DNA of 54,867 nucleotides, counting the filler, from Sphacelaria rigidula (lineage: Eukaryota), in NCBI GenBank assembly GCA_964200075.2. It is 4 parts of 4 records of this genome, joined end to end, with 100 filler letters (N's around TTAATTAATTAA, not from the genome) between each part and the next. Parts side by side here need not be neighbours in the genome. Positions count along the whole stretch, not along the records: positions 1 to 13,644 come from CAXNAA020002748.1; 3 more parts are not named here. The stretch is one strand, 5' to 3'. The notes below the pieces were generated by a model. That model searched no databases, was not told where the DNA came from, and was given only the letters and a program-made list of their open reading frames with translations. Shown piece after piece: positions 1 through 41,227 of this stretch. Position numbers and translations under genes: made by a program. Within the stretch, counting starts at the first letter, position 1, and each line of letters opens with the position of its first letter.

Positions 1-230
1 AACCAGGGGCAATTTCGGATGGCTGGGATTGTTCGCGTGGCAGAGGCAGAGCATCATTCTTGATCGTATTGGTCGACTGGGTAGGTTTTGAAGTCGAGGG
101 GCGTACGTAGGAGCCTTTCAAAAATATTTGTGAGGCAGCTCCGGAATTTCTCAAGAAGGAGTTGCGTAAGGTGCGAGTGACTCGTTCCATTGCTGCTCGC
201 ATTACGCGTGAGTTTGGGATTCAGTTGTGA
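1..230 (+). pseudogene. Ty3/gypsy integrase C-terminal chromodomain-like region, degenerate (element G1, 3' end)
   Basis: Reads NQGQFRMAGIVRVAEA..LVDWVGFEVEGRT*EPFKNICEAAPEFLKKELRK..EFGIQL*, with a stop and a frameshift. Homologous to ORF 30625..30873(-). The LVDWxGF..E.TWEP pattern is the chromodomain signature. Confidence 0.85.
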
Positions 231-309
231 CTTGCTCAATCGTTTCGGCGTTAGTTTTTTTAGTGTCAACCTTGTTGCTCGATTCTCGTCCAACGCGCTT
301 TGGGGGTGC

Positions 310-559
310 TGTGGCGAAATCACGCCGTCACGGTTGAGTATATAATGAATCCTGGATGATGACCAATGGACAAGGGCATCCTGTAGATGATGAGCCTTGC
401 TGTGTAGCCCAGCCTTGTGGCGCGGGGCTGCAGATGTTTCCTCCGAAAAATGACAAGGTGTTGTAAAGGCTGACAACTGAGACCTTGAGGACAGTGGAGC
501 TGAGGAGTCCCTCAACAGCATTCAGACGCTGCAGTACTAGCAAACCTGCTAGCGTCACA
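310..559 (+). repeat. 3' LTR of gypsy G1 (250 bp, TG...CA)
   Basis: Starts TGTGGCG and ends CGTCACA. Preceded by the PPT-like TTTGGGGGTGC (299-309). About 22 mismatches against the LTR at 8650 (manual count). Confidence 0.92.
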
Positions 560-898
560 GACCGTAGCTTGCATCACGGCTACGTCGCAATATACGTACA
601 TGTGGGTACAGTAAGGGCGTTGTACTTTTTCCTCCTGTCGACTACTAGTATATGTATCTTCCTTATTTCTGGCAGGTTGGGGGGGGTCTTCCATGGTTGA
701 TTACCCCGATAGCTACTATACATATACGAGGCGTCATACACGTCGCTTGTCAATGGCTTGAATGGGTGTGCGGGATGGTCTTCGGTACGGGCGTAGCATT
801 GTTGGCAGTATTAGGCTTGAGCGAGTACAGTACCTTGTCTTCGTCCTGCATTGGCTCCTTCTTAGCCCGGCGTCTGTTACCTGTGTTTTTTGGGGGGT

Positions 899-1156
899 TA
901 TAGCCTCTGCCAGACGATCTGGACAAGAGGACTCTCAACGGGGGACTCCTCCAGTAGTACTGGCCTCCTGCTCGACAAGTCCTTTCTTCTTACTTGTTAA
1001 TATCACGGAGTGATTCTCAACAGATCACATCACGAGCCAGACAGCAAGAGTCCACACAGATAAGGGTCATCAATCCAGGATCCCCTGTCCCCTGTCACTG
1101 CTCCAATCATGTATGCGACTACACTGGAACCTTCGGCTTGGTATCATTTGGCTACA
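899..1156 (-). repeat. 3' LTR of G2
   Basis: Direct repeat of 3722-3976. Termini are TATAGCC...GGCTACA on the + strand. Confidence 0.88.
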
Positions 1157-1380
1157 GCACCCTCGAAGAAAGTTCAACGAAATTGGACAAATCATCCATG
1201 ATAACCTAAGCGTACTGATGCACGAGGCAAACCACCTTGTCTCCACCGGATCATGGCATCCGGGCTTGGCCTTCACTGCCTTTGCCTGTGGCTTGAGGTG
1301 TACCCTCATGGCCTCCACGCGCACTGGCGGATCACCACACAGCGCACGACGAAAGGTATCAACGCGACGAGCCAAATTAC

Positions 1381-1591
1381 TGTAATGCGTGAGAGTATCG
1401 CGTGCTTTGAGGACCGCATCGGAATTTGAACATTTCTATGGTTAGGGTTAGTGTTAGGGTTAGTGTTGGGGTTAGAGTCAGGGGCGTGGTTCCTGCAGGG
1501 ACTGGCTCGATTGGTTTTGAAACGCGTCGATCCTGGGGTGTTGTGGACTACGGTGCGGTTCTCTGAGCACGCGGTCCTCTCACGCATTACA
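1381..1591. mobile_element. MITE with ~40-bp TIRs (TGT...ACA), Ginger-like ends and internal telomere-like repeats
   Basis: TGTAATGCGTGAGAG... versus ...CTCTCACGCATTACA. Flanks TTAC/ATAC give a 4-bp TSD with 1 mismatch. It interrupts the G2 pol frame LRGI/LARRVD. Second copy at 8187. Confidence 0.88.
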
Positions 1592-1796
1592 ATACCACGA
1601 AGACGACATGCGCCATCGGCGCTCAGGCCCTTCTGCTCGACCTGCCGCACACTATCCTCTAGCGCACGTTCTCGTGCACCTCTCTCCTCTGCAGGATCCA
1701 TGAACATGTCGGGCCCCCGATCGACCAAGCACTCCACCTCTTCATCCGCAGGAGCCTCCTCCTCATTGGCACTTTGGAATGACCGTATGGATACGA

Positions 1797-2300
1797 TCAC
1801 ACGCCTCGCAGCAAAATAAATGCATTTTCCACGCCGGTTTGCACCGGCACAGCACGCGGGCGTACCTTATCCAACGCCAGTGGGTGCAGATCAATCCCGC
1901 GCTTCTTCATCGTCGCCATCCCAAACAGAACCACGTTGTCCTCACCGGGCATGGCAGCGAAAGTAATGGGCTGCAACTCCACAGCCCCCCACGGTGTACG
2001 CATGCTAACAGTAGTCGGCACCGTTTTGTGTGTAGCCGTCACGGGAGCACCCGTGGCGGTCTGCGCCGTTTGCGGTCCGTTTTCGAACGGAAGCTGCAGC
2101 TGAGCGCCGCCAAACGGCGAAGACATCTGTTCTGGTAACCTCACACCGATCGACGTGAGCGCGGACCCAGAATCCAGAATCACGCGGGCCGGGAACGAAC
2201 CTACAGAACCAGGCACGGAAAGATTTGCGCGCAAGCATTCAGCCTTGCGATTGACAGATACCACGCCTGTCGAAGAACCCGGGTCGGTCTCAAGAGTCAC
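1797..2300 (-). pseudogene. Retroviral-type aspartic protease (G2)
   Basis: VILDSGSALT active-site motif and VVLFGM motif. Homologous to the protease part of ORF 9464. Confidence 0.8.
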
Positions 2301-2392
2301 CTGACGCCAGGGCTGCGCTTCAGCACTTGACGTCGATAACTACGAATCGTTCGTCGAACCAGACCAAGTCGCCGAATATGCAGATGGCGCTG

Positions 2393-3523
2393 TTACAGCC
2401 GTCGCAGTAGTAGGAGATGCACCAGAGACGGATCCTGCCTGGCCGATGGTTGCAAGCTAGTCGCTCCAGCACTCCCCACCAAAGTAGTTGTATTTCCCAC
2501 ATACACTGTCCGCCCTGCTACGGACGAACCATGTAATCCAGAGTCACCACCTGATGGCGTATAGGAAGAAACAGCAGCGGAGAAACCACCATCCGCCGCC
2601 GATTGCTTGCTACCGCGGCCGCCGCGCCCTCGTCCCTGATTGGCACGGCCCCGTCCACCGTGACGACCGCCTCGAGATCCTGATGAACCTCGTGCATTGC
2701 CCTGTGCCGCGCCATGAGCGCGAGGCTTGGGGCAGTCCTTGATCATACGTCCGGTTTCGCCGTAGTTGTAACACGTGCGAGTGGACGGCGCTCGCGACGC
2801 CGGCTGCTGTTTCTGTTTCTGTTGCTGTTTGCGGCGCATACCACTTCCACTTGCCGCAGAGTCGCGCCGGCCATGTGCTTCAATGAACTTCCACTGGTCG
2901 GCCGCCTCAAATACGTTTTTGAAGACCACCGCCGGGTTCTTTTTCCAGCCGTCAACATACGTTAGTACACTTCTAACATACACCTTGAGATGCGGGGGCG
3001 AAATCCCGTTCACCAAAGCTATGGAAACCGACTCGGCCGGGCCTAGCAACCAGCTCCTGTCCTCCGCACGGTACATGGCTTGCACCATCAGGCGCTCTGC
3101 AAAAAATCGTTCCATATCTGAACTGATCATCATATCACGATCCCTGACAGTTTTTCCCCCGCTTTGCTTCAGTGTGAGTACTTTATGCAGATCTGCAACA
3201 GCCCGTGCAGCGTCATGCTTTCCACCGGTTGTAGTATACCCGGCATGCTGGTTCGCAGCATCAAGCAATTCATCGGGGGTCATAGCCCGACCATCCTTGT
3301 ACATGCCTTCGAAGCAGCGGTAAATGTAGACAGGAATGGGTTGCCCTATGCTTACTCTATCATGCCGTATAATTCCTCGTCCATTAGCGAGACGCAGACG
3401 CTGTAGATATTCAAGATATGCTACGAACAAAAACCGTGATGCCTCCTCTGTCGATACCCCACCATACTTTGGCGGCTGTAGTGGCCCACCTAACACCAGC
3501 GGCGCTACCGCCGCTTCAGCCAT
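2393..3523 (-). CDS. gag: Gypsy Gag-like protein (G2), degenerate zinc knuckle
   Basis: 376-aa ORF, similar to ORF 9464 (L.PP.Y...SR.F...Y.EY..R; WK.P..V). Decayed CCHC motif CYNYGETGRMIKDC. Confidence 0.8.
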   Translation of the reverse strand: MAEAAVAPLVLGGPLQPPKYGGVSTEEASRFLFVAYLEYLQRLRLANGRGIIRHDRVSIGQPIPVYIYRCFEGMYKDGRAMTPDELLDAANQHAGYTTTGGKHDAARAVADLHKVLTLKQSGGKTVRDRDMMISSDMERFFAERLMVQAMYRAEDRSWLLGPAESVSIALVNGISPPHLKVYVRSVLTYVDGWKKNPAVVFKNVFEAADQWKFIEAHGRRDSAASGSGMRRKQQQKQKQQPASRAPSTRTCYNYGETGRMIKDCPKPRAHGAAQGNARGSSGSRGGRHGGRGRANQGRGRGGRGSKQSAADGGFSAAVSSYTPSGGDSGLHGSSVAGRTVYVGNTTTLVGSAGATSLQPSARQDPSLVHLLLLRRL

Positions 3524-3721
3524 GTCGTCGATGCTTTAAACACTTCACGGAGAGACTCTTGCTTGACTTATGCGTCCTTCAGCTCACGGTGCGTCCTCCA
3601 CTACTGTGCGCTTCAAGCTGGCCTCCTCCTGTCTGCGGGCTACACTGGCTCTCAGCTGCAGCCCATATCTCCTCAGCCAAACCTCCTCTAGCAGAGTGCC
3701 GGAATATTAATATCTAGATAT

Positions 3722-3976
3722 TATAGGCTCTGCCAGACGATCTGGATAAGAGGACTATCCACGAGGGACTCCTCCAGTAGCACTGGCCTCCTGCTCGACA
3801 AGTCCTTTCTCACTTGCTATTGTCACGGAGTGATCCTCAACAGACCACACCAAGAGCCAGACAGCAAGGAGCCACACAGATGAGGGTCATCAATCCAGGA
3901 TCCCCTGTCCCCTGCCACTGCTCCAATCATGCATGTGATTATACTGGAAGCTACGGCTCGGTATCATTTGGCTACA
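3722..3976 (-). repeat. 5' LTR of G2
   Basis: Direct repeat of 899-1156, lying upstream of gag on the - strand. Confidence 0.88.
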
Positions 3977-4190
3977 CATCTCGAAGGAAATTTCGTCGGG
4001 TGTAAAATGGTTGACAGTAACATGTGAACCTGAAAGGAAGGAAAACACCATGCCGTTTGATGGCAGACAGGTATCGGTCACTGTTGCAGCTGAAGACGTT
4101 GAAATTTGTTGGCGACGGTTGTTCGATGGTACGGTCGTGAAAGCTGGATCGGCGATGGTAGTATTAGCTTGGCGTTGATGTCCGTCGAGG

Positions 4191-4227
<37 letters not shown>

Positions 4228-6030
4228 CGCGGTTGCCGCTATTGCGTTGGCTGTTACGGTCGGAATCGTCATGTTCATCAATGCGTTGAAGACCGCACCA
4301 CTGTACAGGCCTGTTTCCATTATTGGACTATAGTCTGGAGTGACAGTCGCGCAAACGATGGCCTGGTTTCCCACGGGAGTAGCTTTTTCCACGAAATTTC
4401 GCGGATTGATTTGAAGAGGTCGGTATTGATGCCGCCAGTTTTGATGAATGACGGCCATGTGATCTTCTCGCAATGACTTTGCGCGCCATTTGATTTGCAT
4501 ACATGTTGCGCATAGTAATTTCTATCTCCTCGATGTTGAAGTCCGGGTCGCGTCCAGCGTGGTACTTGATCTGATCATGGTCGCTGGTTAGACCTTCAAT
4601 TACTGTGTCAGACAACGTTTCTTCGAAGACAGCCTCTCCCACATGAACGGGCTCGTCTCGAAGTTGAAATAATTTTGCAGGGAGACATCTGGGTCTTACC
4701 CTGGTGACATGGTGATGTCGTCCAGTTTTCTCAAAAATATGCGGCGTCTCTGTCTGGACGAATTCTGATATTTTGCTACCAGACCTTCCCACGCACATTT
4801 GCCGTTTAGTCTCTTTAAATTGTTTGGTTGAAAACGCAGGAGGAAACTTACCGCTGCACCAGTTGTCGACGAATACAAAACGTTGAACAACTGTTCGTTA
4901 TGCCGGTCCCAGTTTTCTATATTTCGCGTGTTCAACGTTTGTCTCACATGTGACGCCACGCTGGGATAATCAGACACTTCTCGATCAGGGGCTTCGGCTT
5001 GGTCATCAGCAGTTTTAGTATCTCCCGCCGCTGCTGTCACCTCGCTCCTCGCGGTTGCCCCCACCGATGGTGAAGGTGAACGAGCGGACGGCTGCTGATG
5101 GCTTCTGGAACGAGTCGCAATGGGGCTTGTTCTCGATGTCGATCTGGGAGCTGGTTGCGGCTGGTCTACCTCAGAAAGAGCTTCATCATAAATTTCCGTG
5201 GGGCGTTCAACCCCGTTGAGGATATCAGAAATCGCCGGAAGAGTCAAGGCAATAATCGTGTGGGTAGAGCACGTCCACTCGACAAACTTCGTACAGCCAA
5301 ACTTGTTGATACTCCTGATTAGCTGAGTTACAGATGGCTCTCTCAATTTACTCATCTGCCTCAGGTTGTACTTGTAAAACATTATTTTGACAACTGCAGA
5401 TCTATTGAAAGGATCTGATTTTTTGGTCTTCTGGTTGTCGCTGCTGAGACGACCTTGAAGTGACGTCTCCTCGCTCGTGCTGACCGTCGTAGTCTCGAAT
5501 CGAAGGCTGATGGCCTGATGGACTACGTGGTCGCGAATCGAAGGCTGATAACCTATTGGCAAATAGTGGCATGCGGTGTTTGGTACTGTTCTCGAAGCAA
5601 AGCGACTACTGTCACGGAGACAGTAGTAAAGCAGAGGTTGCACAGTGGTAGCAAAAACACTTGCTTCTGCAGCAAACAGAAGGTCGAAAAGACAAATAAA
5701 TAGTGTTTGGGGCACTTCACGGGGCCGAACATAATGAAGTAGCTTCCTTTTCATACAGAGGGCTGAGGAAACGAAGGAGAACTGAGTAGGCTTGGTAAAG
5801 TGATTGCAAGGGCGGTAGAGACCACCGATTCCAAGCATACTCAATCCTGAAACATAAAGCAAAGACCTCAGCACGTACGTAGGATCAAATCGTATCATCC
5901 CATTCAACCTCGCTACTGCTGACGCGGTAGCCTTGCCAGTTCTTCAGCTTGGATCTAGTGCAAACTTGCACACAAGATATCTTACAGCTTACGTGGCCTA
6001 CATACTCTGCTAGAGTATCTTTCATCGACA
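3977..6030 (-). mobile_element. Truncated Ty1/copia element (5' LTR, PBS, gag)
   Basis: On the - strand the LTR end ...CCAATA at 5554 is followed by GGTTATCAGCC, a half-tRNA-Met-type PBS. A copia-type gag lies downstream. The outer LTR boundary near 6030 is only a guess. Confidence 0.7.
4000..5355 (-). pseudogene. gag: Copia Gag (UBN2-like), frameshifted
   Basis: MSKLREPSV...AWEGLVAKYQNSSRQRRRIFLRKL, then a frameshift into AKLFQLRDE..VIEGLTSDHDQIK..GKPGHRLRDC (decayed zinc knuckle). (AAC)n tract at 4190-4227. Confidence 0.78.
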
Positions 6031-7984
6031 AATCAGGGCAACACGCCTACTTCAGCAATATCCTACTTGGAACCTCATTCAAACAAGTAGGTTATAGATC
6101 AACACAAAAGAGGTACTCTCCGTGAAAAATATGCGAATGAAACGGTATTACATGGTTTGTAGATTTGTCGGACCGCAACATGTTTTATCACTATCTTTTG
6201 TCGCAACGACTTCATTCAAACACATTGGATACAGACTGTATCGTCTAGAGTTTTTGCAACACATTGCATTCCGTACACTAGCTGAAGCTCTGAAGACGGG
6301 ACGATTTCGGAACAACATTCACAAGAAGCGTGATGCGATGCCCACTTACTTCTACGAGTGAAGACAAAAAACTCGATAAGGGCTTGAACTGCACGCAATT
6401 TAGAGACATGTACGGGAGTAGCCAACTTGTGCTATTTTTTGTCGAGTTACTGTGAGGAAGGCGTATCGCTAGGGTAGACAGACTAACGAGGAAACTATCT
6501 TGGGAGATATCATCCTGGTGCCGAAGGAACTTCGAGGCTGGCGACGATTTCCTCTTGTGATATGTGGGCAAGAATTTGGGTCAGACGAGAAATGGTCGCC
6601 AGGGCGCGACCCGTTCCTTGGGGGATGTTGGTCCATCCTGAATCAGGCTCTTCTTGGTATCACTCCAAGTTGTCTAGTATCGTTGGTATTACAGGGTCCT
6701 CGGTAGTCTGATCCCTTCGGATCGTTCCTACCTTGTACCTGCATGCCCCGGGTCTTCATACAGGTGTGGCATCAGTCTCTGATATGCCACTGCAAAGAGA
6801 TGTCTTCCACATCACGACATTTTCATCTTTTTTCATGGGTCCAGATCGCTCTAACTCACTGATTTTGTTTTCACTTTTCCTATGCTGCTTCCCTGACTTC
6901 CCTGACTTCCCTGACTTCCCATGTATTCAGAATACAACTCTCATGTCGAATTTGCAGCTCATAGCTGCAACCATTGGTCATCGCATCATCGTTAAATGCA
7001 CGTTTTTATTGCTGGCCCACACTGTATTCGTTTCCCCAATCGTCCGTCTTGCGGTTGCTGATCGGGGGGAATTCGCCGCTCGGCGTAGAGAACTTGTTCT
7101 CTCTTCTCACCGTAGGTTTTATTTCGAGTGGCCACGGGTACAGGGTGGGGTATCGGTACGAACTGGGCCAGCTTACAAGTTGCTGAACGTTGCTAACACT
7201 ACAGCTTTTCCAGTTTCCCGAATGAACCCGATGTAAGCATATCACTGCGAAGTGCAGACCAACCTGGTAAGATACGGCACCGCCACTGAATGAAAAAAAA
7301 TGGAAAAACAATTTACTGCATAATGTACAACTTCAATGACGTACGAGAAAAAAGAGAATATGTCGGGATTCGAACTCATGACCTCCATAATGGGAGTCTC
7401 CCATCACTTGAATGATAGGGGTGCAGTAGCGTTACGCAAAGTGTTGCACGCACGGCCCAATCCGACGACTCTGGAGCTGAAATTTCAGGAAGATCTTCTG
7501 CCCCCAAGGAAATATACATCACGTGAGCAGCTGCAGAATCTCATTTTTTTCCTGGACTTATGGCGTTATCTTGTTTTTGCTGAGATTTCGAATCCCCATG
7601 ACTTCCTCATTTATTTGTTTTTCCTCTGCTCCTCACTTGTGTTCTGCATCTCGATCATAAAAAGCTGCTGTTAAAATTTCAGCGTCCAAGTCCTAATATC
7701 ACGCCGTGCGTCGCCCGAGCGAGATTCGCACCTACTCTTGGTTGGCCTCGCTCTTAGTTCAACTGTGTTGTATTCGTTGCGTATTTCGTAGATGATGTAC
7801 CTGACCTCGAGCTACGGCTTCTCTCGTCGGCCCTTTCCTCGTCTTGCACCGTGTCCACCCGCATTCCTCGTGACCAGCGGCGCTAAATCCTTTTCGGATG
7901 GGCGGCACGGAGCGGACCCAGCCAGGAGCGTGGTGTTACTATACATCCGTTTTGGGATTTATCATCGAGATTGGCGGTTGTTAA

Positions 7985-8086
7985 CCCTTGAACCGCGATG
8001 CGGGGAGACTATCGGGATAACGCATACAATTTTCAAGTGAAAATTGATGCCGATTCAGCAGGTGACCTACCCTCGCGGTCTGAGGG
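7985..8086. mobile_element. piggyBac-like MITE (102 bp)
   Basis: TTAA|CCCTTGAACCGCGA ... TCGCGGTCTGAGGG|TTAA; TIR match 11/14. Confidence 0.7.
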
Positions 8087-8186
8087 TTAAGTAGTGGTGA
8101 AGCAGCATAAGTATACATTTTAATGATGCTCTCCCGCGGGTCGTATTTACGCATATTCTCTTCCCGGGATATGGTGGGGCAAAGGG

Positions 8187-8396
8187 TGTAATGCGTGAGA
8201 GGACCGCGTGCTTAGAAGACCGCGCGGTAGTTAATAATAGTTCAGGATCGACGTTTTTGAGAACAATCGGGTCAGTCCCTACAGGTACCACGCCCCCGAC
8301 CTTAACCCCAACACTAACCTTAACCCTAACCCTAACCATAGGGGTGTTCGAACTCCGATGCGGTTCTCTGAGCACGCGGTCCTCTCACGCATCACA
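8187..8396. mobile_element. Second copy (inverted) of the 1381-1591 MITE
   Basis: Same TIRs, internal (CCCTAA)-like tract at ~8300-8337; TSD unclear. Confidence 0.88.
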
Positions 8397-8649
8397 AAGT
8401 GGCCACTAAGTAAGTGATATATCTGGTATTGCACAAACCCTCTCAATTTCGTAGCCCTTGGGTATTCGTGGGCTAACGGCGGAGAGGGGGGGGGCAGGGG
8501 TGTTGCGTTTTCCTCTTCGATATCAAGATAGATGGGGGGTAAACACCGGTCGCACGGGAATGGTATGGAGCGTGAGGTATGCAGAGGCATGGAAGTACTG
8601 CAGAAGGACGGATACGAGATGCCAGAGCGGATGTGTGAAGCATTTGACC

Positions 8650-9152
8650 TGTGGCGAAATCACGCCGTCACGGTTGAGTATATAGTGTATCCTGGATGAT
8701 GACCAGGGGACAAGGGCATCCTGTGGATGATGAACCTTGCCGTGTAGCCCAGGCTTGGGGCACGGGGCTGCAGATGTTTATTCCGAATGATGGCAAGGTG
8801 TTATAAAGGCTGACAACTGAGACCTTGAAGACAGTGGAGCTGAGGAGTCCGTAAACATCATTTAGACGCTGCAGTACTAGCAAACCTGCTAGCGACTGCT
8901 GCCGAGATAGCACCACCCCGAACCGGCCAAAAACGTGCACTGGGGGTGATGATCATGAATACCGTTAGAGCTGGTTGCGTGCTGCACGACGCGACTCATT
9001 TGGGCGTTATGGCTGATTTCGGATTGCTACACGTCTCTCATGCGGGTGAAATTGCTGCGAACGAGCCCAATAGTGGGATCGCAGCTGGTTTGTCGGACGA
9101 TCTCCGGTGCACTTTTGTGGGGGGGCTATCTCGGCATTAGTCTAGCATCACA
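8650..9152 (+). repeat. 5' LTR of G1, interrupted by a MITE
   Basis: Matches 310-559 up to ...CTAGC (8893) and resumes TAGCATCACA at 9143-9152. Confidence 0.9.
8894..9142. mobile_element. MITE, 249 bp, 18-bp TIR, 4-bp TSD TAGC
   Basis: GACTGCTGCCGAGATAGC / GCTATCTCGGCATTAGTC (16/18). The empty site is visible in LTR 310-559. Confidence 0.9.
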
Positions 9153-9463
9153 ATATCGATATTAGTGCTAGTGCTTGGCGTGCTAGTAAGTGCTATCGTT
9201 TGAGGCTGCTGAAACTTTCAGCAGGGAGACGTCTGGACAGCTTCTGATTAGCCTCGGGCACAGAGCTTCACGGACGCGTGAGGAGGTTTCAAGCAGAGGT
9301 AGCTGCAAAGGCGGCTGGCCCGTGATTGATCCAGGCTAGAGACTTGCTGGAGATGGCGTACAGCGGGTGTTTGTAGGACCCCAGGGCTATGTGGAGCGGC
9401 GAAGGAAGCAGGTGTGATCAAAATTTCCAGAAGGTTTGAGAAATCTTCGATTTAGGCTCAAGA

Positions 9464-10392
9464 ATGTCGACATTGGAGGTACAGACAAAAGAGCCAGCGG
9501 AAACGACTGTAACCCCAGTCGTTCTAAAGGAAGAGTTGCGGCCGCCCAGTTACGAGAGTTTGTATTCTAAGGGTGCCTCTCGATCGTTTTACACGAGATA
9601 CATGGAATACAAAAGGAGGGTGGAGCATGCGAATGCAGGGGGTGCGGTGAGGCATCAGGTGGTGTCGATGGCGCAATTAGTACCAACACCCTTGCAACGC
9701 GTCTTCGCGGGGCGATTCCATGAAAAGCATACCATAACGCCGCTGCAGTTGGCAGCAGCGATAAAGAAGCACGCAAGGCATGCGGCAGGCGCGGAGGTAG
9801 AACTTACTCAGGCGTCCGCGGTCGTGGCAAAGGCTGTCGCAATGAACCACAAGGGGAGGACCATGCGTGAGAGGGTGGAGCCAATAATGAGTAAGTTGGA
9901 AACGTATTTTGCGGGAAATCCCAACGTAGACATGATTTATCGTTCGTCCGATGGGACATTTCGCCCAGGGCCCGCTGCGGTGGTCACCAAAGCGATGGTG
10001 GAGGGTCTGGTACCGGCGGAATTTAAGCAGGCCGGGCTTGCACAGTTACAGCACGAAACAAATTGGAAGTCGGACCCGTATTTAGTCATGGATACCGTGG
10101 TGGCTGAGGCTCAGGCATGGCGGCGCGTCGAAGTATTCGGAAAATCATCCACTTCGTCGCCGCAGTCTTCGAGCTCGCGTAACCGCGGATCAAAATACGC
10201 AGGCAGTGCCGCCTCAAATTTTTCTTGCTTTCAGTGTGGCCAGGTCGGTCAAATCCCACGGAAGTGCCCAACGCCTTCTGAAGAGGAGTCCGGGCAGACG
10301 AATGCCGCGCGCCCTCACAAGGGCAAAATACGAGGTAGTCGTGGTGGCGGTGGCGGCGCATCCTCCAGCGGTGGAGGTGCACAGTCGACTTC

Positions 10393-10448
<56 letters not shown>

Positions 10449-11389
10449 GACAGCGGCGTCAGCAGGGGTCCGGTTCGGGGTTCGGATCAGCCGCAGGGGC
10501 TGCTGCTCCGCAACGGGCGGTGCAGGTGGGACCGACCTCTCTAGTGTCGGGCTCGGTGTCGGCGCCGTCGGCAGCAGAGCAAGGCGAGACGCCGGCTGCG
10601 GATCCTGCCGGTTTTCAGCTGCAATTTGGATCGGTTGCTGTGTCGGCCGGGGTACCGCTGCAATTTGGTTCTGCGGGCGGGGCTTCGCACCCGCCGGCGG
10701 TGCCGGTGACCTCAGCGGGGGCGTCTCTACCTGCGCCGCGCGCGCAGCCGTGGCGCCAAGTGGGGATTACGAACAATCAGTCAGCGAAGCAGGTGCCGGT
10801 CGAGGACCAAGACAATTATGTCCCTGCCGAGTTATATCTACCCGATCAACGGGCGCGGGGAGCTATATCGGTCAAAGCGGTGTTGGATTCAGGCGCCCGC
10901 TTCACGAGCATGTCCGTGCTAATTGTGGAGATGCTGGAGCGTCTACTCCCCGGTGAGCAAATCCGAACTCCGTTTTCGCTCGGGCAACGTATAAGTGTGA
11001 CGGAGCGTACGATGCTCCCACAGTTGGCGTTCCTGACTACTTGGGGGGCAGCAAAATTACCCCCAATATCGTTTGCGATCATGCCGGGGACGGATGGTGT
11101 CGTTCTGTTGGGCCTACCAACGCTTCGGAGACTCGGAGTCGATCCGTATGATCGGTTGTTGGAGTCCCTAAAAACGTCAATGCCGTCGCCCGGATCGAGT
11201 GTCGAGACGCCTGCTTTTTTGGCCAGTAGCAGAGTGAGCTTGTCGGTTGATGCTCTCCAGGAGGCGGGGGGCAGGTGTCCGAGGAGCATGATGAGGCGAT
11301 GGAACGCTTGGTGGAGCGCGGCCCCGATATGTTTATGGAGCCGGCGGAAGAAGTGTCCGCGCGAAAGGCTGCGCTTGAGGAAAGCGTGA
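9464..11389 (+). CDS. gag: Gypsy Gag-protease (G1), with polyQ; the last ~40 aa are out of frame
   Basis: 641-aa ORF with CFQCGQVGQIPRKC knuckle, Q18 from (CAG)18 at 10394-10447, VLDSGA protease motif and VVLLGL. Confidence 0.88.
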
Positions 11390-13644
11390 CGGATGCGGTG
11401 GAAAATGGCCTTGGAGTCTCAAAAGCGGAGCGCTTGCGTGGCATACTTTATAGCCACGTTGACGTGTTTCGTCATGCGCTGAGGGGTGATCCCCCTGCGC
11501 GCGTGGAACCCATGAGGGTTACACTGAAGCCAGGGGCGGCCGCGGTGAAGGCAAAATCGAGGAGGTATGATCCGGTAAAGTCCAGTTGGCGAGCTTCTTG
11601 CATGGGAGCTCTCGTGGCGTTTGGGTTGGTGTTCAGGAATCTACAGGCGGTATGGTCCAGTCCAGCGATGGCAGTGCCGAAGAAGGACTCTTTCCGTCTT
11701 GTAAGCAATTACGGAGCCGTCGATGATCAGGTGGAGAAGTCGCCGGGTGTCATGCCAAATCAGGAATCCGACATGATAGCCCTGTTGAGTGCGCGATGTT
11801 TCGGTAAGTTGGACCTTCTACAGGGGTACTGGTAGACGCTGTTGGCCGAAGAGGCGCAAGAGATATTAACAACCACGACTCTGCTTGGCATGTTTACCCC
11901 GCAAAAGAGTACCGCAAGGCGTGTTGAATGCTACTTATTATTTTCAAGGTGTCATGGTAGACTTTTTAGATGGCTTGAAATGCAAGATTTGGGTGGATGA
12001 TGTATTTTGCTTCGCGGATACGGAAGACGAACTGTTGGATACGCTTGATGCAATCTTGGCTCGCTTAGAGAGTGTTGGTCTGTTTGCAGCTGCCCACAAG
12101 TGTACCTTTTTTGCTAGTGAACTAGTGTGGTGTGGGAAAGTGTACTCACACGGCCGCGTCTCGCATGATCCGGTCCGCTTACAAGGTATGTTTGACATGC
12201 GGCGTCCAGTAACAGCCGCAGAACTAATGCAATTCCTGCACGCAATGAACTGGTTGCGTACCTCGTTGCCACGTATGGCTGAAGTAGTGGCGCCTTTACG
12301 CGGTTTTCTAGAGAAAGTCATGGTGGGGGCAGCCAGGCGCACGAAGCGGGTGGCAAAAAATCGTGTTATTCCGCCCGCCTCGTGGACGGAGGACAGGCTG
12401 CAGGCATGGGCGGCAGCGAAGGATCTGGTGGCTCACGCCGTGACGCTGTTCCATCCCCGCCCCGGTTGACAGGTGCTGATGTTTCCGGATGCATCCGAGT
12501 GTCATTGGGGTAGCTTTGTCACGAAGGTGCTTGATGCAGAAATGCAAGAACGGTTGCCAGTTGAAGGTATGACGCATGAACCGCTGGCTTTTCTGAGTGG
12601 TAATTTCAAGGGTTCCCAGCTGCGTTGGGCAACCGTTGACAAGGAAGGTTTCGCTATCGTGAGCAGTTTTCGTCGTCTTCAGCATCTATTGTGAAATGGC
12701 GTACACATTTTCACGGATCACCGAAATCTAGCGTACATTTTCAACCCGGAGGCATGCGTGACGTCTGTGTCGAAGGCGTTGGCACAGCGATTGGAAGGGT
12801 GGAAAGGAGTATTAGGACAGTATCGGTACACGATTTGTCATATTTCGGGCGAGCGTAACGCGTGGGGTGACTTGCTGTCGCGCTGGGTAAATATTCCCAC
12901 TTTGCCTGCGCGCGCTGTGGCTGTGTATGGTCCGTGCGAACCTGATGACTCGATGCCGTCCAAATCTGTTGTCCGCCAAGCGCAACGAAAAAACCTTGGA
13001 GCTGAGGATGCGGAGGTGCAATCTTTCGAGTCGGACGTTGGCACTGCTATCTTGGACAATGAAGGTCTGTTTTGTGTGCATGTGCGTGGTCGAAACGTTT
13101 TGTGGATTCCGAGTTCTGACAAGCAGTTGCAGGTACGCTTGATGATTTGTGCGCACATGCGCGATGCCGGGCATCGAGGTGTGGATGCGACGCTCGTGCG
13201 CTTGAAAGAGTTTTGTGTCTGGAAGGGGATAGAAACTAATGTGCGCGAGTTCGTCCGCCAGTGTCTTCACTGTGCTGACTCGAGGGCGGGCGATGTTGTT
13301 CCCCGCCCGCTCGGTGAGACAGTCCATGGGACCCGAATGAAGTCGCTCATTTTGACTTCTTGCACGTGGGCCAGAGTGGCCCGCTAGCTTCCCAAGGTTT
13401 GTCGGAGGATGCTGGGTTCCGGTACATTTTGGTCATCATGGATGATTTGAGCAATTTTGTGGCTCTGGAACCAGTAGCAGTATGTACTGCTGAATCGACT
13501 GCGACGTCTTTGCTGAACTGGTGCAAAACTTTGGGAGTGCCCCGTGTGTGGGTGGGTGATACCGCCACGCATTTTAAGAATGCGATCTTGGCTAGGTTGC
13601 GAGAGGCTTTGCGCGTTGATCACCGGTTTGCGGTAGCGTATTCG
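11275..13644 (+). pseudogene. pol: Gypsy Pol: RT, RNase H, integrase (disrupted)
   Basis: WSSPAMAVPKKDSFRLV, KLDLLQGYW, PQGVLNA, WVDD, KCTF (RT); FPDAS..LAFLSG..W.TVDKEGFAIV, FTDHRNL (RNase H); HHCC zinc finger and IMDDLSNFV, WVGDTATHF (integrase). Confidence 0.93.
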
Positions 13645-13744
13645 NNNNNNNNNNNNNNNNNNNNNNNNNNNNNNNNNNNNNNNNNNNNTTAATTAATTAA
13701 NNNNNNNNNNNNNNNNNNNNNNNNNNNNNNNNNNNNNNNNNNNN
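13645..13744. other. Assembly gap with artificial spacer TTAATTAATTAA
   Basis: N-run, 12-mer, N-run; the same construct occurs at 27386 and 41128. Confidence 0.95.
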
Positions 13745-27385: not shown

Positions 27386-27486
27386 GNNNNNNNNNNNNNN
27401 NNNNNNNNNNNNNNNNNNNNNNNNNNNNNNTTAATTAATTAANNNNNNNNNNNNNNNNNNNNNNNNNNNNNNNNNNNNNNNNNNNN
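27386..27486. other. Assembly gap with artificial spacer
   Basis: N-run, TTAATTAATTAA, N-run. Confidence 0.95.
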
Positions 27487-30329
27487 GTTGACGCGGTGCG
27501 GGAGTGGTGATAGTCATGACCCAATCCGCGAGACCAGAATGCAAGGCGTGTACCGGGGAGATATGGGTTTATTGATTCCTTGAGACCACGGACTCGTCCC
27601 GGGGAAGGGGAGGGGTTCAAACTGCGACAAAGAAATGAATAAATAATAATAAAAGTAGATGAATGAGCAAGGATAGTTACACGGGAGTCGACGAGCTGCG
27701 AAGGAACCGTTCCAGTGCTCGGTAGAACATTTGTCGAAAGATTTTGAGGGGATGAACAGGTGGATTGATCCCCTGAGATTACTCGTCTACGGGACTGGGC
27801 AAGGAAAGGAGAGGCCTTGTGAAGAACGGTGCGGCAAATGTACATATTTCTCAGACAGCTGTTTTTAGTGGACCTTTTTGGTTGCAAGAGTAATTGTGCT
27901 TATTTTTTAATTTTTTTCTGCCCCTGATGCCGTATTTTTGTGATCCGGACTCATGCCGTTGCGTTCCTTCGTGATTTGCTGCATATTGTTAGCCCGCTGT
28001 TAACATTTCAGTGATGTTGATTGTTGCATATATATATATATATATATTGATGTTATTTATGTACTGCATGTTGTGCTCTTTCTTTTGTCAGGCTCCATTT
28101 AAAAAAATGGTCACCTCAACATCTTGGGACGAGTCAGTCCATAGTTGCGAAGCATCAACTCGCTATTTACCACCTGCCTGATATTTTGGTATCGAAGATT
28201 GGATGATGACTATTCTCGCATCCCGTCGTCTCTCGTCAAACTTCTTCGCTACTACTGACTTATTTCCTCGCGCTTTTAAATGCGGAAACCAGACTTGAGC
28301 TTTAGAAAACACGCATGGTATACAGATATATATATATATATATATATGCATGATCATGAGCACACACCCCCCTTGTCCTCTTTTTACGTTCTTGTCCCAG
28401 GGCGCGATCAAAAATTGTTTTATCCGAGGTTCGGTGGTGCGATACATACAGATTCCATCCTCAGACGTAGATACGGAGCTGCTGCAGGATGCGTGTCGCA
28501 AGGAAAGTGCGCAAGGAAAATGACCACAACGTGTGACGGGGCAGAATGATCTTTCCATCTTTGGACAACAATAGCAGTATATATGATCTGTACTGGTCAG
28601 ATCATTCTGCTCAGTGCGCACTATTATCAGTATGTTTGATGCATGGGGGTGATCTGTTCTATCGTACGTATGGAAAATTACTTGAAAAACGGAGGGAACA
28701 GTCAATCTAGTTCCCAGTAATGTTTTTTTGAATTATTATTACAGGGGCAGGGGGCAAGTGTTAGTGTAGTGTGTGGAGTACATCATTTAGATAGTACGGT
28801 AGGGGAAGAGGTGGCGGAGAGGCCATGTGACGCCATCGTGTCGTGTAGTAAAATGTGTTGTCTGTTGTGGTCCAGTTCTTGCTTCTTTTTTCCTTCTTTT
28901 TTTTCAATGGTTTTCTGGCTCGGAGTAAGAGCTTCGGTTAATTCTTCACGTGGGTATCAAGCGTTATTTCACATGTGGAGTTTGTCATTGTGCTCGTACG
29001 TTCGTGTTGAACAAATGGTACTTCTCTCTCGCTCTCTACGTGGTTGATTTCGAAATCCCGTCTCTCTGCGGTAGCCTCAGTCCTTGATTTTTAGTGTAGC
29101 ACTTCCGCGCGACCCCCCTGTGTGTAATGTACCCGCCGCATTGGTAAGCCTACTTTGGAATTTCGCGAGTCTTAGAACAGCAGTGACTTTTTTTTGCTTC
29201 AATGAACAAAGTTGCAGCAGATACTCCCCCCCTGCGCGCGCGCGCTCCCAAATCGTGCTGGTAGTAATTCTACTGTGAAAAAATGATGGTATCTAGTAGG
29301 TGGAAGGGGGGGCATCGCTCCTTGTCCCTTTTAGTGACAAGGGATGGGATTTTGCTTTGGGTAATACGTGTTTGATTTTTCTGTTTGGAGGGGGCAGCGA
29401 TAGGGGAAAGGGGGACGACGAAACACAGGTGACATGCGGCGAATAAGAACTGTCTGCGTGACTATTTCGGGGTGTAGGGATGTGGCGAGGAGGGAAGGGA
29501 GAGAGAGAAAGAGTACCGCCGGTCATTATCCAAAGTACCGTAGGTGCTATTCGGGGTATATCACCCAGGGGCTGTGCAAACCAACACCAACGCCGCGGAC
29601 AGTAGTGCTATGGCATTGCAGAACCGCGTTTTATTCCAGATAAAGTCGAGTTTGGGTCGCCAACGCCCCCGGGTAACATTCTCCGCATCATAGTATCGTA
29701 GGGTACGGAACGAAAGAAAAGCGAGATGTGAAGATGACGGATGGAGGGAGGGAAGGGTGAAGAAGTGGCTGAGGGGGGGATGGGGGCGCACGTGGGGGGC
29801 GGGGGTTATTGTGAAGCGTTTTGGTGCGAAGATATTGTTTTTTTCGCAAGTTGACGAATATAACTCTTTTAACTGTATCTGACGGAATATATACACATAT
29901 ACACATGTATGTATGGGTTGATCGAGTACGAACGTGAATGATATCGATATGTGGACGGCAGTATATCAACTGCAGTATTCCAGTAGTTTTTTGGCACTTT
30001 TTGGCGCTTTTTGGCGCTGGGTGAGAGTGGTCGACGTAAGTTTGGCCTCGCTTTCGTCAGATATATTTTGGTAGCCGTGTATTAGCTGCGAGAATCGATT
30101 TGGTTTTACAATATCCCCCCCCTCCCTTGAAAAAAGCCAACCATCTCTCATGACCATACTACATTATGTTTGTAACGATGTCACGGTTGGCCGATCAGAT
30201 ACGAGATACAAGTAGTCTGTGCCCCTGGCACTCTGGCTGGCAGCCCAATGAAAGACCAGCAGTATGCGCCACATGCTTCTCATCTCTTTTCCGTGGGGGA
30301 AGGACGAAGCCTTACCGAACACTTATCCC

Positions 30330-30549
30330 CGTGACGCCAGCCATTGAAAGAACTGCTGGATCACTGATGTTGAGGGACTCCCCGGTCTTACTGGCCTCAG
30401 TTTTAGTTGTCAGCCTTTACAACATTCGGTTATTCAGCAGTGCCCTCGTAGGCACAGCCTCCTAGACACGCCAGGGTATCAACCTAGTGTCCCCGGTCAT
30501 TATCCAGATCATCACTACCAACTCAACGTAACGGCGTTATTTCGTCACA
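30330..30549 (-). repeat. 3' LTR of G3 (220 bp)
   Basis: Direct repeat of 34492-34711, adjacent to the PPT. Confidence 0.9.
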
Positions 30550-30624
30550 GCACCCCCAAAGAGCATTGGACAAAAATCGATCAACAAGCTTGACACATTC
30601 GAAAACGCCAAAACGATGAGTAAG

Positions 30625-32230
30625 TCACAACTGAATACCAAACTCATTCGAAATTCGATCAGCGCCGGCACGAGTCATGCGCAATTTACGCAATCCCTTC
30701 GTAAGAAATTCCGGAGCGGCCTCAAAAATATCCTTGAAAGGCTTCCACGTACACTCCTCAACTTCGAAACCAACCCAGTCGACCAACACGATCAACGAAC
30801 GATCGTCTGCTTCTGCCACTCGGACAATACCAGCCATATGAAATTGCCCTTGATTGAAAGCATGCTGGAACACGTCCTAAACGTCAGCAATAACATTAAG
30901 CTGCGAGTCTGCATAAAAACGCAAACGAGCTACATGGGCGGTCTGAACACGACCCGAAACAATGTTTTGAATCTCAAACACGTGCGGGCGGTGAGCACCA
31001 ACCACTCTCCGTGGATCAGTCCAAGTCGCCATCAACTTGGGCGTAACACCCGGACGACGCACGCGTCCATACAAGACATAGTCGCCTGCTTCGAAATTCG
31101 GCAATTCCAGCCCCGACGAGGACCCCTCACGTCTACGCGCACGTTCAGCGGCAACACGTTCCTGCACTTGAACGTGGAAACGTTCTTGCAAGTCCAAGAC
31201 TCCTTGCAAAGCACTCTTGATTTGAACATCGTCCAAAACATCACACTTCCATTCCCCCGCCGACGAAGACGCCAGCACCGAGAAGGACGTCCGAGGGGCA
31301 CGACCAAACATCACGTGGTGCGGCGTACTATCGTAACAACGACGATACGCTGTGTTGAGCGCCCATTGCACCGCGGGCAACACGTCCACCCACTCGGAAA
31401 CCGCTCTACGCTGCTCGAGGGGAATAGAGCGAAGAGCACGAACTACTTCCTGGACCATGCGTTCGCACGTACCTTTAGACCACGGATAATACGCAACCGC
31501 AAACTGGTGATCAACGCGCAAAGTCTCTCGCAATCGGGCCAAGATCGCATTCTTGAAATGCGTGGCGGTATCACTCACCCACACACGCGGCACCCCCAAA
31601 GTTTTGCATCAATTCAGCAAAGATGCAGCAGTTGATTCAGCAGTACACACTGCTACTGGTTTCAGAGCCACAAGGTTGCTCAAATTATCCATGAATACCA
31701 AAATGTATCGAAACCCAGCATCCTCCGACAAACCTTGGGAAGCTAGCGGGCCACCCTCGCCTACGTACAAGAAGTCGAAATGAACGACTTCATTCGGCGT
31801 GGTCCAATGGGTCGTTTCATCGAGCGGGCGAGGAATAACATCGACAGCCCTCGAGTCAGCTTAGTGAAGATACTGCCGGACAAATTCGCGCACATGAGTT
31901 TCTATCCCCTGTCAGACACAAAACTCTTGCAAGCGCACGAGCGTCGCAGCCACACCACGATGCCCAGCGTCGCGTATGTGCGCGCATATCATCAGACGTA
32001 CCTGCAACTGCTTGTCAGAACTCGGAATCCACAAAACGTTTCGGCCACGCACATGCACACGACACAGACCTTCATTGTCCAAGATAGCAGTGCCAACGTC
32101 CGACTCGAAAGATTGCATATCCGCATCTTCGGCCCCAAGGTCTTTCCGTTGCGCTTGGCGGACGACAGATTTGGGCAGCATCGAGTCATCAGGTTCACAC
32201 GGACCATACACAGCCGCAGCGCGCACAGGC
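30625..32230 (-). pseudogene. Integrase plus chromodomain of G3 (disrupted)
   Basis: HIRDAGHRG zinc-finger half, WVSDTATHF..GTCERMVQE core, KLMATWTDP (GPY/F-like) and LVDWVGFEVEECTWKP chromodomain. Confidence 0.88.
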
Positions 32231-34183: not shown

Positions 34184-34491
34184 CATGCGCGTAGCTGCAA
34201 CCGGCGACCTGCGAACTTTCATAGGCCAGCTGACTTTCACGAATTGCACTCTTCCTTGCCTCGTCGCCGCACCACACAGTCGTAGGAGCCTCCAAACTCC
34301 CGCTACACGCAGCTTCAGCAAGTCTCGAGTCTGGATCAATCACAGGCCAGCCGCCCTTCTGCAGCTGCTTCAGCTGGAACCCTCTCCACGCGTCCGTGGT
34401 GTATTAGGTTTCCACAGCTACCAGACTCCTACCGGAATCCTTTCCAGCAGGTTTCTAGCACCAACATTCGCACTAGCACTAATATCGATAT

Positions 34492-34711
34492 TGTGTAGCC
34501 AGCCAGTGGAAGAACTGCTGAATCACTGCTGTTGAGGGACTCTCCAGTCTTACTGGCCTCAGTTTCAGTTGTCAGCCTCTACAACATCCCATTATTCGGG
34601 AGTGCCCTCGTAGGCACAGCCTCCTAGATACGCCATGGTATCAACCTAGTGTCCCCGGTCATTATCCAGATCATCACTACCAACTCAACGTAACGGCGTT
34701 ATTTCGTCACA
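34492..34711 (-). repeat. 5' LTR of G3
   Basis: TG...CA termini; direct repeat of 30330-30549. Confidence 0.9.
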
Positions 34712-34960
34712 CCCCGCAAGCGGGTTCGTGTGCCGATTACTCGGAGTCTCGGCTACACCGCCTCATGGAGGTCATGTGGGGTAGGCGCCTTGAGCGTTAG
34801 GAAAAAATTGCTCAAGGCAGTGTGGGGGTTGAACGCATTAAACCCCCTGTCACCTTGGCGTATTGCACGCGCCGCTCTACTCTTATGAGCTTCAGTCCTA
34901 GGTCCTCCCGACCTGGTATACTGTAGTTCACGTGTACCAATTGGACCACCGGGGCGCGCG
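34712..34960 (-). mobile_element. tRNA-headed SINE, 5' part (continues at 30285-30329 beyond the G3 insertion)
   Basis: Head GCGCGCCCCGGTGGTCCAATTGG; body homologous to 22085-22350. Confidence 0.72.
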
Positions 34961-35805: not shown

Positions 35806-36978
35806 AAGGGTAGTGATACTTGTAAAATTGTGTCAATCATCCTAGAACGCAGCCCAACGACGGTTAACTAGCCTCGTTTGTACGACTGCTCCTGTTTCAC
35901 CTCTCCCGTACTTGGAGCGTGGAACATCGGGATCCACTTTTTTTCGGCATGTAGCAGTACAACGCCACCTCTATCTCATCCATGACCTCTCCTCAATAGA
36001 GAGCTTGGCCTACACAAACCGCCGACTGTGCGTATTTCATTGTCATATAGCTTGTTGAACCATGAAACGTCGATCGGCCGTCTCTTTGATAATCGGAAGT
36101 GACGTCCCGGCCTATGTTCCCAATAATAGATGCAAGGCTTATGCCACCTGATTACGAATCTCCTACTACGTGCTCTAGTTCGAATTAGAGATACTGGTGT
36201 GTGTTGTTGTGTGTGTGTGGTGTCGTCCCATTTATTCTGGGCGCCAGTCTACCCCTTTCGGGATGTGTGGGCGCATCAGCCGGGGTCACNNNNNNNNNNT
36301 TTTTTATTTGTTTTTAGTACCCCACCTTCCTTCTGCGGTGCTTGCCTTTTTATTTTTTATCGCGAGAAACTGTTGTACACATTGCTTCAACAAATCAAAC
36401 ATGCTTTATCGACAGCCACCCAATAGGTTGCATCGTGAAATCCCCATGTCATGTCGAAGTTCATGTACGGTGGGAAGGTACCCTACCGGTCAGGTACTAT
36501 CTCCAAGAATCGAACCGTCACCGTCGTCAGTTTTTCCTTTCATAGAGAAAAAAATTGCGCTTGCTTCGGACCACAAGGATTGGATTTTCATTGGTTCCGA
36601 TTTTTTCCGAGTCGTTGTTGGGCCATGTTATAAAATGGTTGCACACACAACCGGCATGTTCCCAGGTGGCTGGAGCAGGTGTAAGGTGATCGTTAGCATT
36701 ATTTCGAATCTCAGACCGAGGAAAGATTCGAGCGGGAACTTGACGGTTGGAACCTACGTCACACTCTGCGTAGATCTCAACAGTCTCATGCGATAACGAA
36801 CTCGAACTACTGTGACCCACGACGTGTTGTGTTCGTCTCGACATGGAAAGGCGTGACACCACACGCGAGTCATCAACCGGCGCATTTAGCCTCGATACTA
36901 ATCCGTCTCGGGCTCGTGAACCATATTTCAGGGGCATCATCTGCTGACAATTTTTTTCAGGTAATTTTACCGCCGTTA

Positions 36979-41127: not shown

Positions 41128-41227
41128 NNNNNNNNNNNNNNNNNNNNNNNNNNNNNNNNNNNNNNNNNNNNTTAATTAATTAANNNNNNNNNNNNNNNNN
41201 NNNNNNNNNNNNNNNNNNNNNNNNNNN
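41128..41227. other. Assembly gap with artificial spacer
   Basis: N-run, TTAATTAATTAA, N-run. Confidence 0.95.

Follow-up and report, generated by a model that had tools for sequence, protein, structure and literature searches.

Perfect palindromes at the primer-binding-site position of Ty3/gypsy elements in a Sphacelaria rigidula assembly

Introduction

Priming in long terminal repeat (LTR) retroelements is thought to take few forms: the 3' end of a tRNA, a half tRNA, or self-priming of the Tf1 type. A tRNA primer-binding site (PBS) starting with TGG is usual for Ty3/gypsy elements, if not universal, and Goodwin and Poulter are said to have noted 'novel priming' in Tcn2-5. Here, we describe Ty3/gypsy elements in a stretch of 54,867 nucleotides (the window) from the Sphacelaria rigidula assembly GCA_964200075.2. 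The window consists of four contigs, separated by N44-TTAATTAATTAA-N44 linkers at 13645-13744, 27387-27486 and 41128-41227, and holds four element copies that we call G0 to G3. In the three copies whose 5' LTR lies in the window (G1, G2 and G3) the PBS position is taken up by a perfect palindrome, and the same is true of a related element, L011, from a metagenome-assembled genome (MAG).

The closest precedent for these palindromes is the Conserved Hairpin Site of the GalEa elements. As described for GalEa (PMC5445492), this site consists of 9 nt that follow the 5' LTR and form a palindrome when the LTR's last A is added (A+CTGATCAGT or A+CTAATTAGT); the authors noted its likeness to a retroviral dimerization initiation site (DIS), and the mechanism is left unexplained there. 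Our elements resemble GalEa in having no tRNA PBS, a palindrome directly after the 5' LTR, symmetric variants of it and no complement to it in U5 (the unique 5' region of the LTR). They differ in that GalEa elements are copia elements of Pezizomycotina, whereas ours are gypsy elements of a probable brown alga, and in that the GalEa palindrome has 10 nt and is accompanied by a second box, CHSeq2, 12-41 bp downstream (PMC5445492), whereas the palindromes here have 12-14 (16) nt. A CHSeq2-like box was not found in the leaders of G1, G2, G3 and L011; the closest sequences were incomplete matches of 5 nt, such as TATCG in G1, and, in G2, an AATATT next to the palindrome. The polyprotein is not of the Ty1/copia type found in the GalEa clade either; its reverse transcriptase (RT) domain is RVT_1 and the integrase (IN) follows the RT.

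Three other systems bear comparison, each as described in the accessible parts of the sources. The Tf1/sushi elements (Tf1, Tf2, Maggy, Skippy and others) are Ty3/gypsy elements like ours and have a chromodomain, of which our elements show a weak match. They use no tRNA primer; their own RNase H cuts a short RNA-RNA duplex formed at the PBS, and flanking RNA structure is needed (PMC7175516, PMC6934838, PMC6317226). In Tf1 an 11-nt self-primer is freed by an RNase H cut of an 11-bp RNA duplex, and the PBS, which is not palindromic, is complementary to the 11 nt at the start of the same transcript (PMC7175516), whereas the site described here is complementary only to itself. The retroviral DIS and the PAL1/PAL2 sequences of Ty1 are likewise self-complementary sequences of the 5' leader that are able to join two genomic RNAs, but these palindromes, of 6-7 nt, are separate from the PBS and occur alongside a tRNA PBS, whereas here the palindrome occupies the PBS position (PMC6844567). 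The copia elements primed by a half tRNA also have a PBS that does not start with TGG; their PBS is fixed by a host tRNA, whereas here the sequence varies by lineage and the symmetry is kept, and half-tRNA use is recorded in that source for Ty1/copia lineages only (PMC6317226). Our search of the literature for a palindromic PBS in gypsy or brown-algal elements returned only the GalEa paper and a paper on bivalve TRIM elements (miniature retrotransposons with terminal repeats) that cites it; supplementary element tables, including those of Neumann et al., may hold closer precedents.

Position and symmetry of the palindromes

The palindromes and the LTRs that frame them are as follows (window coordinates).

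9152..9163, plus strand: G1 palindrome AATATCGATATT, at the primer-binding-site position
34481..34492, minus strand: G3 palindrome AATATCGATATT, beginning at the base after the 5' LTR
3709..3722, minus strand: G2 palindrome AATATCTAGATATT, beginning at the base after the 5' LTR
8650..8893, plus strand: main part of the G1 5' LTR (start TGTGGCG), placed by homology to the G0 3' LTR and the G3 LTRs
8894..9142, no strand given: 249-bp insertion in the G1 LTR resembling a miniature inverted-repeat transposable element (MITE), with 18-nt terminal inverted repeats (16/18 matched)
9143..9151, plus strand: last 9 nt of the G1 5' LTR (TAGCATCAC), where the LTR resumes after the insertion and is followed by the palindrome
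34493..34711, minus strand: G3 5' LTR (TGTGACG...GGCTACAC)
30331..30549, minus strand: G3 3' LTR, with the polypurine tract CTTTGGGGGTGC (30550-30561) before it and GGGG after it
3723..3976, minus strand: G2 5' LTR (TGTAGCC...GGCTAT)
900..1156, minus strand: G2 3' LTR; on the element strand it is followed by AA (899, 898), the two bases with which the palindrome also begins
310..559, plus strand: G0, the 3' LTR of a fourth copy whose body lies to the left of the window; polypurine tract at 299-309, LTR end ...GCTAGCGTCACA

Exactly two copies of AATATCGATATT are present in the window, those of G1 and G3, with an expected count of 0 from 100 dinucleotide-preserving shuffles of the window; AATATCTAGATATT is present as the single copy in G2, again with a shuffle expectation of 0. 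The G2 palindrome grows to 16 nt (3708-3723) once the flanking T and A are counted. Checked against the LTR pairs, each of the three palindromes adjoins the end of its 5' LTR. The G0 3' LTR ends in ...CACA and AA follows the G2 3' LTR, so that the LTR may also be taken to include the A with which the palindrome starts; the sequence directly after the 5' LTR is then palindromic with this A counted, as in GalEa.

The LTRs of G3 (TGTGACG...CAC) are 93% identical to one another and those of G2 are 88.6% identical, the G1 LTR has 91% identity to the G0 3' LTR and ∼77-82%, in blocks, to the G3 LTRs, and the tract CTTTGGGGGTGC precedes the 3' LTRs of both G0 and G3. The inverted termini, TGTGACG...CGTCAC(A) and TGTAGCC...GGCTAT(A), are of the TG...CA type, as in Ty3/gypsy LTRs.

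An earlier note on this DNA had placed perfect palindromes at these three positions, directly after the 5' LTRs, and the exact counts and the LTR pairs bear this out. Its account of the surroundings needs correction. What it read as the end of the G1 LTR (∼8894-9142) is the MITE-like insertion, and because of this insertion the LTRs of G1 and G3 seemed to differ, whereas they are homologous; G2 and G3 lie on the minus strand.

One further candidate site, ATATCGATAT at 29941, was rejected as it has no LTR context.

A third lineage with a different palindrome

We scanned prokaryotic genome contigs with an alignment (A2) built from nine full-length polyproteins, which makes no use of the palindrome motif. 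Three eukaryotic contaminant contigs in MAGs were retrieved (L010, L011 and L012), of which L010 and L012 hold only pol. In L011 the order is the end of pol, the 3' untranslated region, CTTTGGGGGGGTGC, the LTR, a palindrome, the leader and the gag-pol frame.

1228-1508 of L011: LTR (TGTGGCGTC...GACGTCAC)
1509-1522 of L011: perfect 14-nt palindrome AATACGATCGTATT, directly after the LTR
Then in L011: leader of 333 nt, followed by an open gag-pol frame of 1751 aa

The L011 pol shares 35-41% identity with the clade, and with the G1 fragment 43%. L011 is the only further member of the clade that was recovered with its LTR-leader junction, and this one junction carries a palindrome (1/1) that differs both from that of G1 and G3 and from that of G2. 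The claim of the earlier note that a palindrome in the place of the PBS is kept for its symmetry is thus strengthened by a third, different palindrome at the same position.

In all, five LTR-leader junctions from three diverged lineages begin with a perfect palindrome at the LTR end (AATATCGATATT in G1 and G3, AATATCTAGATATT in G2 and AATACGATCGTATT in L011). The arms AATA...TATT are kept in the three lineages around cores of TCGA, TCTAGA and CGATCG, and every one of these is perfectly symmetric. The leaders of G1, G2, G3 and L011, on the other hand, have pairwise identities of 46-55%, compared with a mean of 50% and a maximum of 55% for shuffles; the exception is positions 100-300 of G1 and G3, at 60%. 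At the U5 border, only a self-complementary word is conserved. As the cores differ and yet remain symmetric while the leaders are at random identity, the sequences point to selection for self-complementarity rather than for pairing with a fixed host tRNA.

Perfect palindromes are not in themselves exceptional in this DNA: the window has about 30 non-trivial ones of at least 12 nt, compared with a mean of 13.5 in block shuffles. They are rare but not unique, and it is therefore the position of these three that matters. The excess, and the fact that palindromes are common as protein sites, would suit a DNA-level site for a dimeric protein, or a mere coincidence. A change in length from 12 to 14 nt would, however, put the half-sites of such a protein out of register. 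By our own arithmetic the chance of a perfect palindrome of at least 12 nt within ±1 nt of a given site is ∼7e-4 per lineage, and that of exact placement at the LTR end in three lineages is ∼4e-10, with a core that is symmetric every time. We consider both explanations to be very improbable.

DNA searches with the LTR-leader regions of L011, G3 and G2 found no further copies in the MAGs behind L010-L012. The pattern CACAATAN{4,6}TATT gave eight matches in those MAGs and 13 for the reversed control; the sole palindromic match (L053) lies outside any retroelement and was set aside. Ten other retroelement contigs from these MAGs, at 22-32% identity, were excluded as members of the clade.

Two more distant gypsy elements were looked at individually. 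L036 (2550-3036; 27% identical), from the same contaminated MAG, has its LTR start between AAAACTTGGGGGGTGA and TGTAAATG and carries ...ACCACA-T-TGGCGTCGAATCGG, a TGG-type PBS, ∼70 nt before the open reading frame (ORF); with an ordinary PBS in this element, the palindromic site appears to be specific to the clade and not general to the gypsy elements of that sample. L042 has a 14-nt perfect palindrome, TCGCAGTACTGCGA, at 4130-4143, ∼120 nt upstream of the first ATG of the gag frame. Its flanks are partly inverted and the LTR boundary was not placed, so it does not form part of the evidence.

Candidate primers

No TGG is found within or directly after the palindromes of G1, G2, G3 and L011, and the usual feature of a PBS for a tRNA 3' end is thus missing; for the three sites in the window this had been claimed before, and the junction sequences agree. 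In G1 and G3 the first TGG lies ∼25-30 nt downstream of the palindrome. Reverse transcription of an LTR element duplicates everything between the polypurine tract and the 3' end of the primer into both LTRs, and the primer must therefore pair directly after U5. By this known mechanism a TGG 25-30 nt downstream cannot be the primer site.

Self-priming of the Tf1 type is not indicated by the sequences either, as no segment of the LTR complements the site beyond chance. For the 26 nt after the LTR, the best Watson-Crick runs in the LTR are 7, 4 and 6 nt in G1, G2 and G3, respectively, which are reached by 48/300, 300/300 and 162/300 shuffles. The statement of the earlier note that the LTRs contain no long complement thus stands.

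Could a host RNA other than a tRNA 3' end, such as an internal tRNA fragment or a small RNA, act as the primer? Half-tRNA priming in copia lineages provides a model for this (described in the consulted part of PMC6317226). Three different palindromes would, however, need three host RNAs, each of them palindromic; by our own reasoning, an even-length perfect palindrome cannot be centred on the 7-nt loop of a tRNA, and the GG found in the D loop is missing from the motif. There are no tRNA genes and no Rfam families (at the gathering score) in the window, and an Rfam search with 34380-34720 gave no match at E values of up to 10. Such a primer is improbable.

A metagenome scan with the 20-mer AATATCGATATTAGTGCTAG, which is common to G1 and G3, gave nine loci in four independent contexts, none of which is from this clade. 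Six of the nine (L001, L002, L003, L004, L006 and L008) are one copia-type family with a 3382-aa ORF containing RVT_2 and a Tudor-like match, in which the 20-mer stands in reverse orientation, ∼173 nt into the LTR. L004 departs at the LTR end, while the other loci of this family continue into ...GTTATGGGCCTGG, which may resemble a half-tRNA-Met site; the start of L001 is presumably sequencing-adapter sequence, directly before a possible transcript start. The remaining three are unrelated contigs that are prokaryote-like or AT-rich. Scans for tRNAs in all nine loci and for Rfam families in six of them gave nothing. The loci were rejected as a primer gene and as support; the number of matches is near chance, with about one expected by our own rough estimate.

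Folding and a model for priming

Taken alone, the three palindromes have calculated hairpin ΔG values of 0, 0 and -0.9 kcal/mol and homodimer ΔG values of -10.9, -14.0 and -16.6 kcal/mol. The central four bases (TCGA, CTAG and GATC) are self-complementary in 3/3 lineages. The loop of a hairpin would need no pairing of its central bases.

These values bear on a snap-back hairpin in cis, in which the palindrome, once cut at its 3' edge, would fold upon itself, or in which a complement further downstream would fold back onto it, as has been proposed for the GalEa site. The arms AATA(T/C) and (A/G)TATT could make a stem of 4-5 bp, and GalEa is described as pairing its palindromic CHSeq1 with CHSeq2 12-41 bp downstream (available text of PMC5445492). 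The hairpin ΔG values are, however, negligible, the self-complementarity of the central 4 nt is needless for a loop (a chance of 1/16 in each lineage by our own arithmetic), and no second copy of the motif is found within ∼60 nt downstream in G1, G3 and L011, with G2 having only the adjacent AATATT. We therefore regard priming by snap-back as a poor candidate.

Folding with the palindrome held unpaired gives a stem between U5 and the leader of -22.7 kcal/mol in G2 (shuffles, -11.0 ± 3.3 kcal/mol; reached by 3/1000) and of -19.2 kcal/mol in G3 (-11.6 ± 3.5 kcal/mol; reached by 30/1000). The paired sequences are not the same in G2 and G3. These models are suggestive of a U5-leader stem that presents the palindrome at its top in these two elements.

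Presentation at an apex would also suit a palindrome that is only a dimerization or packaging signal, like the retroviral DIS and PAL1/PAL2 of Ty1, with something else acting as the primer. Palindromes near the 5' end hold the genomic RNA dimers of retroviruses and Ty1 together, as set out in the part of PMC6844567 that was available. Against this, there is no other candidate primer site adjoining U5 (no TGG within ∼25 nt), the established mechanism would lead to the copying of a primer site 25 nt away into the LTR, and the GalEa authors pointed out that known DIS elements accompany a PBS (PMC5445492). A signal for dimerization alone is unlikely, although less so than priming by a host RNA or by snap-back.

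With moderate confidence, based on the sequence comparisons, we propose instead that the palindrome is the primer-binding site of a chromovirus-like Ty3/gypsy clade that does not use a tRNA 3' end, and that selection keeps it self-complementary. As part of the same proposal, the unit under selection may well be the 12-14 nt beginning at the last base of U5. The position, the symmetry, the conservation across diverged lineages, the lack of TGG and the lack of an LTR complement are observed directly here. A role in priming would follow from the rule that minus-strand synthesis starts at the 3' edge of U5; pairing in trans and cleavage would be further steps. As the site is palindromic, the 3' end of its primer would have the site's own sequence, and as the motif is absent from the LTRs, no RNA other than this site on a second copy of the element RNA is known to carry that sequence.

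The way in which such a site might work can be put in three steps. Two copies of the genomic RNA would pair at the site to form a duplex of 12-14 bp. Like the RNase H of Tf1, which cuts an RNA duplex, the RNase H of the element's RT would then cut one of the two strands, at the duplex's 3' edge. The new 3'-OH would prime minus-strand DNA on the partner RNA, starting exactly from the U5 boundary. Co-packaged genomic RNAs would thus prime each other, the palindrome would be both the dimer linkage and the primer-binding site, and the genome cut by RNase H would be the primer. We offer this scheme tentatively, and with less confidence than the assignment of the palindrome as a PBS. The earlier note had put forward three mechanisms, namely snap-back, pairing of the two packaged genomes and a dimerization signal. 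Of these, genome pairing fits best, given the homodimer energies; snap-back fares badly on its hairpin energies, and a pure dimer signal leaves no primer site by U5.

Removal of the primer of human immunodeficiency virus type 1 (HIV-1) leaves one or two primer bases. At the 3' LTRs here, the bases with which the palindrome starts number two in G2 (AA), one in G0 (A) and none in G3; they could be the trace of primer removal inside the primer, or could be there by chance. We count this trace, the U5-leader stem and the precedent of Tf1 in favour of priming by the palindrome.

Several points weigh against it. The evidence amounts to three lineages and five sites. The ends of the L011 LTR were set from one copy, with the help of its polypurine tract and of the termini TGTGGCG...CGTCAC, which G0 and G3 share, and the U5-leader stem of L011, at -14.2 kcal/mol compared with -12.3 ± 3.3 kcal/mol for shuffles (264/1000), is not significant. 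One genome would be lost by cutting it to prime the other, and the primer would keep a long 5' RNA tail unless it were cut twice.

Implications

A palindrome at the PBS position has been reported once before, in the fungal GalEa copia elements and without an explanation, and is now seen in a gypsy clade of a distant eukaryotic group. With three symmetric variants it looks like a general phenomenon, and as these variants are in effect compensatory mutants provided by nature, the question posed by GalEa becomes directly testable. The prediction is that the RNA on strong-stop complementary DNA (cDNA) has the element's own sequence. If this is true, priming by a co-packaged genome either arose or was kept in two superfamilies, the stramenopile gypsy and fungal GalEa copia elements, and would be a third general mode of priming in LTR retroelements beside tRNA priming and cis self-priming of the Tf1 type. 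In practical terms, these very abundant families will be wrongly scored or dropped by tools for LTR annotation that depend on a tRNA PBS.

Relatives and anatomy of the elements

The elements are Ty3/gypsy and chromovirus-like, with a weak chromodomain match. The domain order in G1 is protease, RVT_1, IN H2C2 and rve, the gypsy order with IN after RT. Pfam assigns CCHC, protease, RVT_1, RNase H, IN H2C2 and rve to the related full-length polyproteins P0003 and P0014 as well as to the L011 ORF; the Pfam Chromo scores of P0003 (19.0 bits) and P0014 (23.1 bits) are both under the cut-off of 25.1, and PF00385 is precomputed for the relatives P0009, P0018 and P0023.

The G1 gag-protease ORF matches one protein, from Sphacelaria rigidula, with 85% identity over 28% of the query. 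The RNase H/IN fragment matches 22 proteins, with full-length polyproteins of ∼1650 aa at 58-85% identity; among those with a named source are proteins of Ectocarpus sp. (58%) and Scytosiphon promiscuus (88%, partial). Among oomycetes, the closest match to this fragment, from Aphanomyces, is 35% identical. The elements thus probably come from a brown alga, and not from an oomycete as had been guessed at first. Scans of viral-contig proteins with the G1 gag-protease, the G1 IN fragment and alignment A2 gave 0 relatives each.

The remaining parts of G1 and the gag-like frame of G2 are the following.

9164..9463, plus strand: G1 leader; the first 11 nt (AGTGCTAGTGC) are the same as in G3 and the remainder is near random identity
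9464..13644, plus strand: G1 coding part, degenerate, cut by the contig end at 13644
9464-11389, plus strand: G1 gag-protease ORF
11870-12469, plus strand: G1 RT fragment (RVT_1)
12695-13387, plus strand: G1 IN zinc domain (H2C2)
13318-13692, plus strand: G1 IN core (rve)
2393..3523, minus strand: G2 gag-like ORF of 376 aa, 31% identical to the G1 gag over 276 aa

G1 has no 3' LTR because it runs into the first linker. A second perfect 12-nt palindrome, AATGTCGACATT, is found at 9463-9474, overlapping the G1 gag start codon (ATG at 9464), and is one symmetric pair of changes apart from AATATCGATATT; no counterpart was found at the matching place in G3 or G2. A further run of N occurs in the window at 36290-36299.

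The MITE-like insertion sits 9 nt before the end of the G1 LTR, with TAGC duplicated at 8890-8893 and 9143-9146. Contigs of four sequencing runs were aligned to 200-9700, where those of organism A cover the G-element families at very high summed depth, which is not a copy number. A contig of run X4 links 8892 to 9148, with two other letters between, and represents a copy without the 249-bp insertion. In runs X1 and X4 the summed depth of contigs over the bins of 8894-9142 is very high, so the insertion probably belongs to a high-copy family.

Between its LTRs, G2 has the gag-like ORF only and no pol, a terminal-repeat-with-gag layout. It lies in a tandem LTR-interior-LTR-interior array (898-3994 and ∼3995-6000); the sequence upstream of its 5' LTR is the 3' end of another interior and resembles the polypurine-tract region of G2 itself, and in this context no clear target-site duplication was found. 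Position 3727 is C in nearly all contigs among those listed, in agreement with the G2 3' LTR. The segments 1381-1591 and 8187-8396 are inverted copies with 82% identity, and many X1 and X4 contigs join 1591/1592 straight to 8187; the 6.6 kb between them, including G2, may therefore have been inserted into another repeat.

G3 is flanked on both sides by GGGG or CGGGG, according to where the LTR end is set, as a possible target-site duplication. The tract CTTTGGGGGTGC recurs at 31590-31601 (minus strand), within the G3 sequence that codes for the integrase, with ..KTLGVP... as its translation; this second copy may be a central polypurine tract, and no identical copy is present in G1. The LTRs of G2, G3 (and G0) have a U5/R motif in common, GAGGCCAGT-nnn-ACTGGAG(G)AGTCCCTC (3780-3830 and 34540-34590 on the minus strand, and 450-500), which is the only clear LTR similarity between the G2 and G3 families and holds a small hairpin (CCAGT/ACTGG) ∼60-70 nt before the palindrome.

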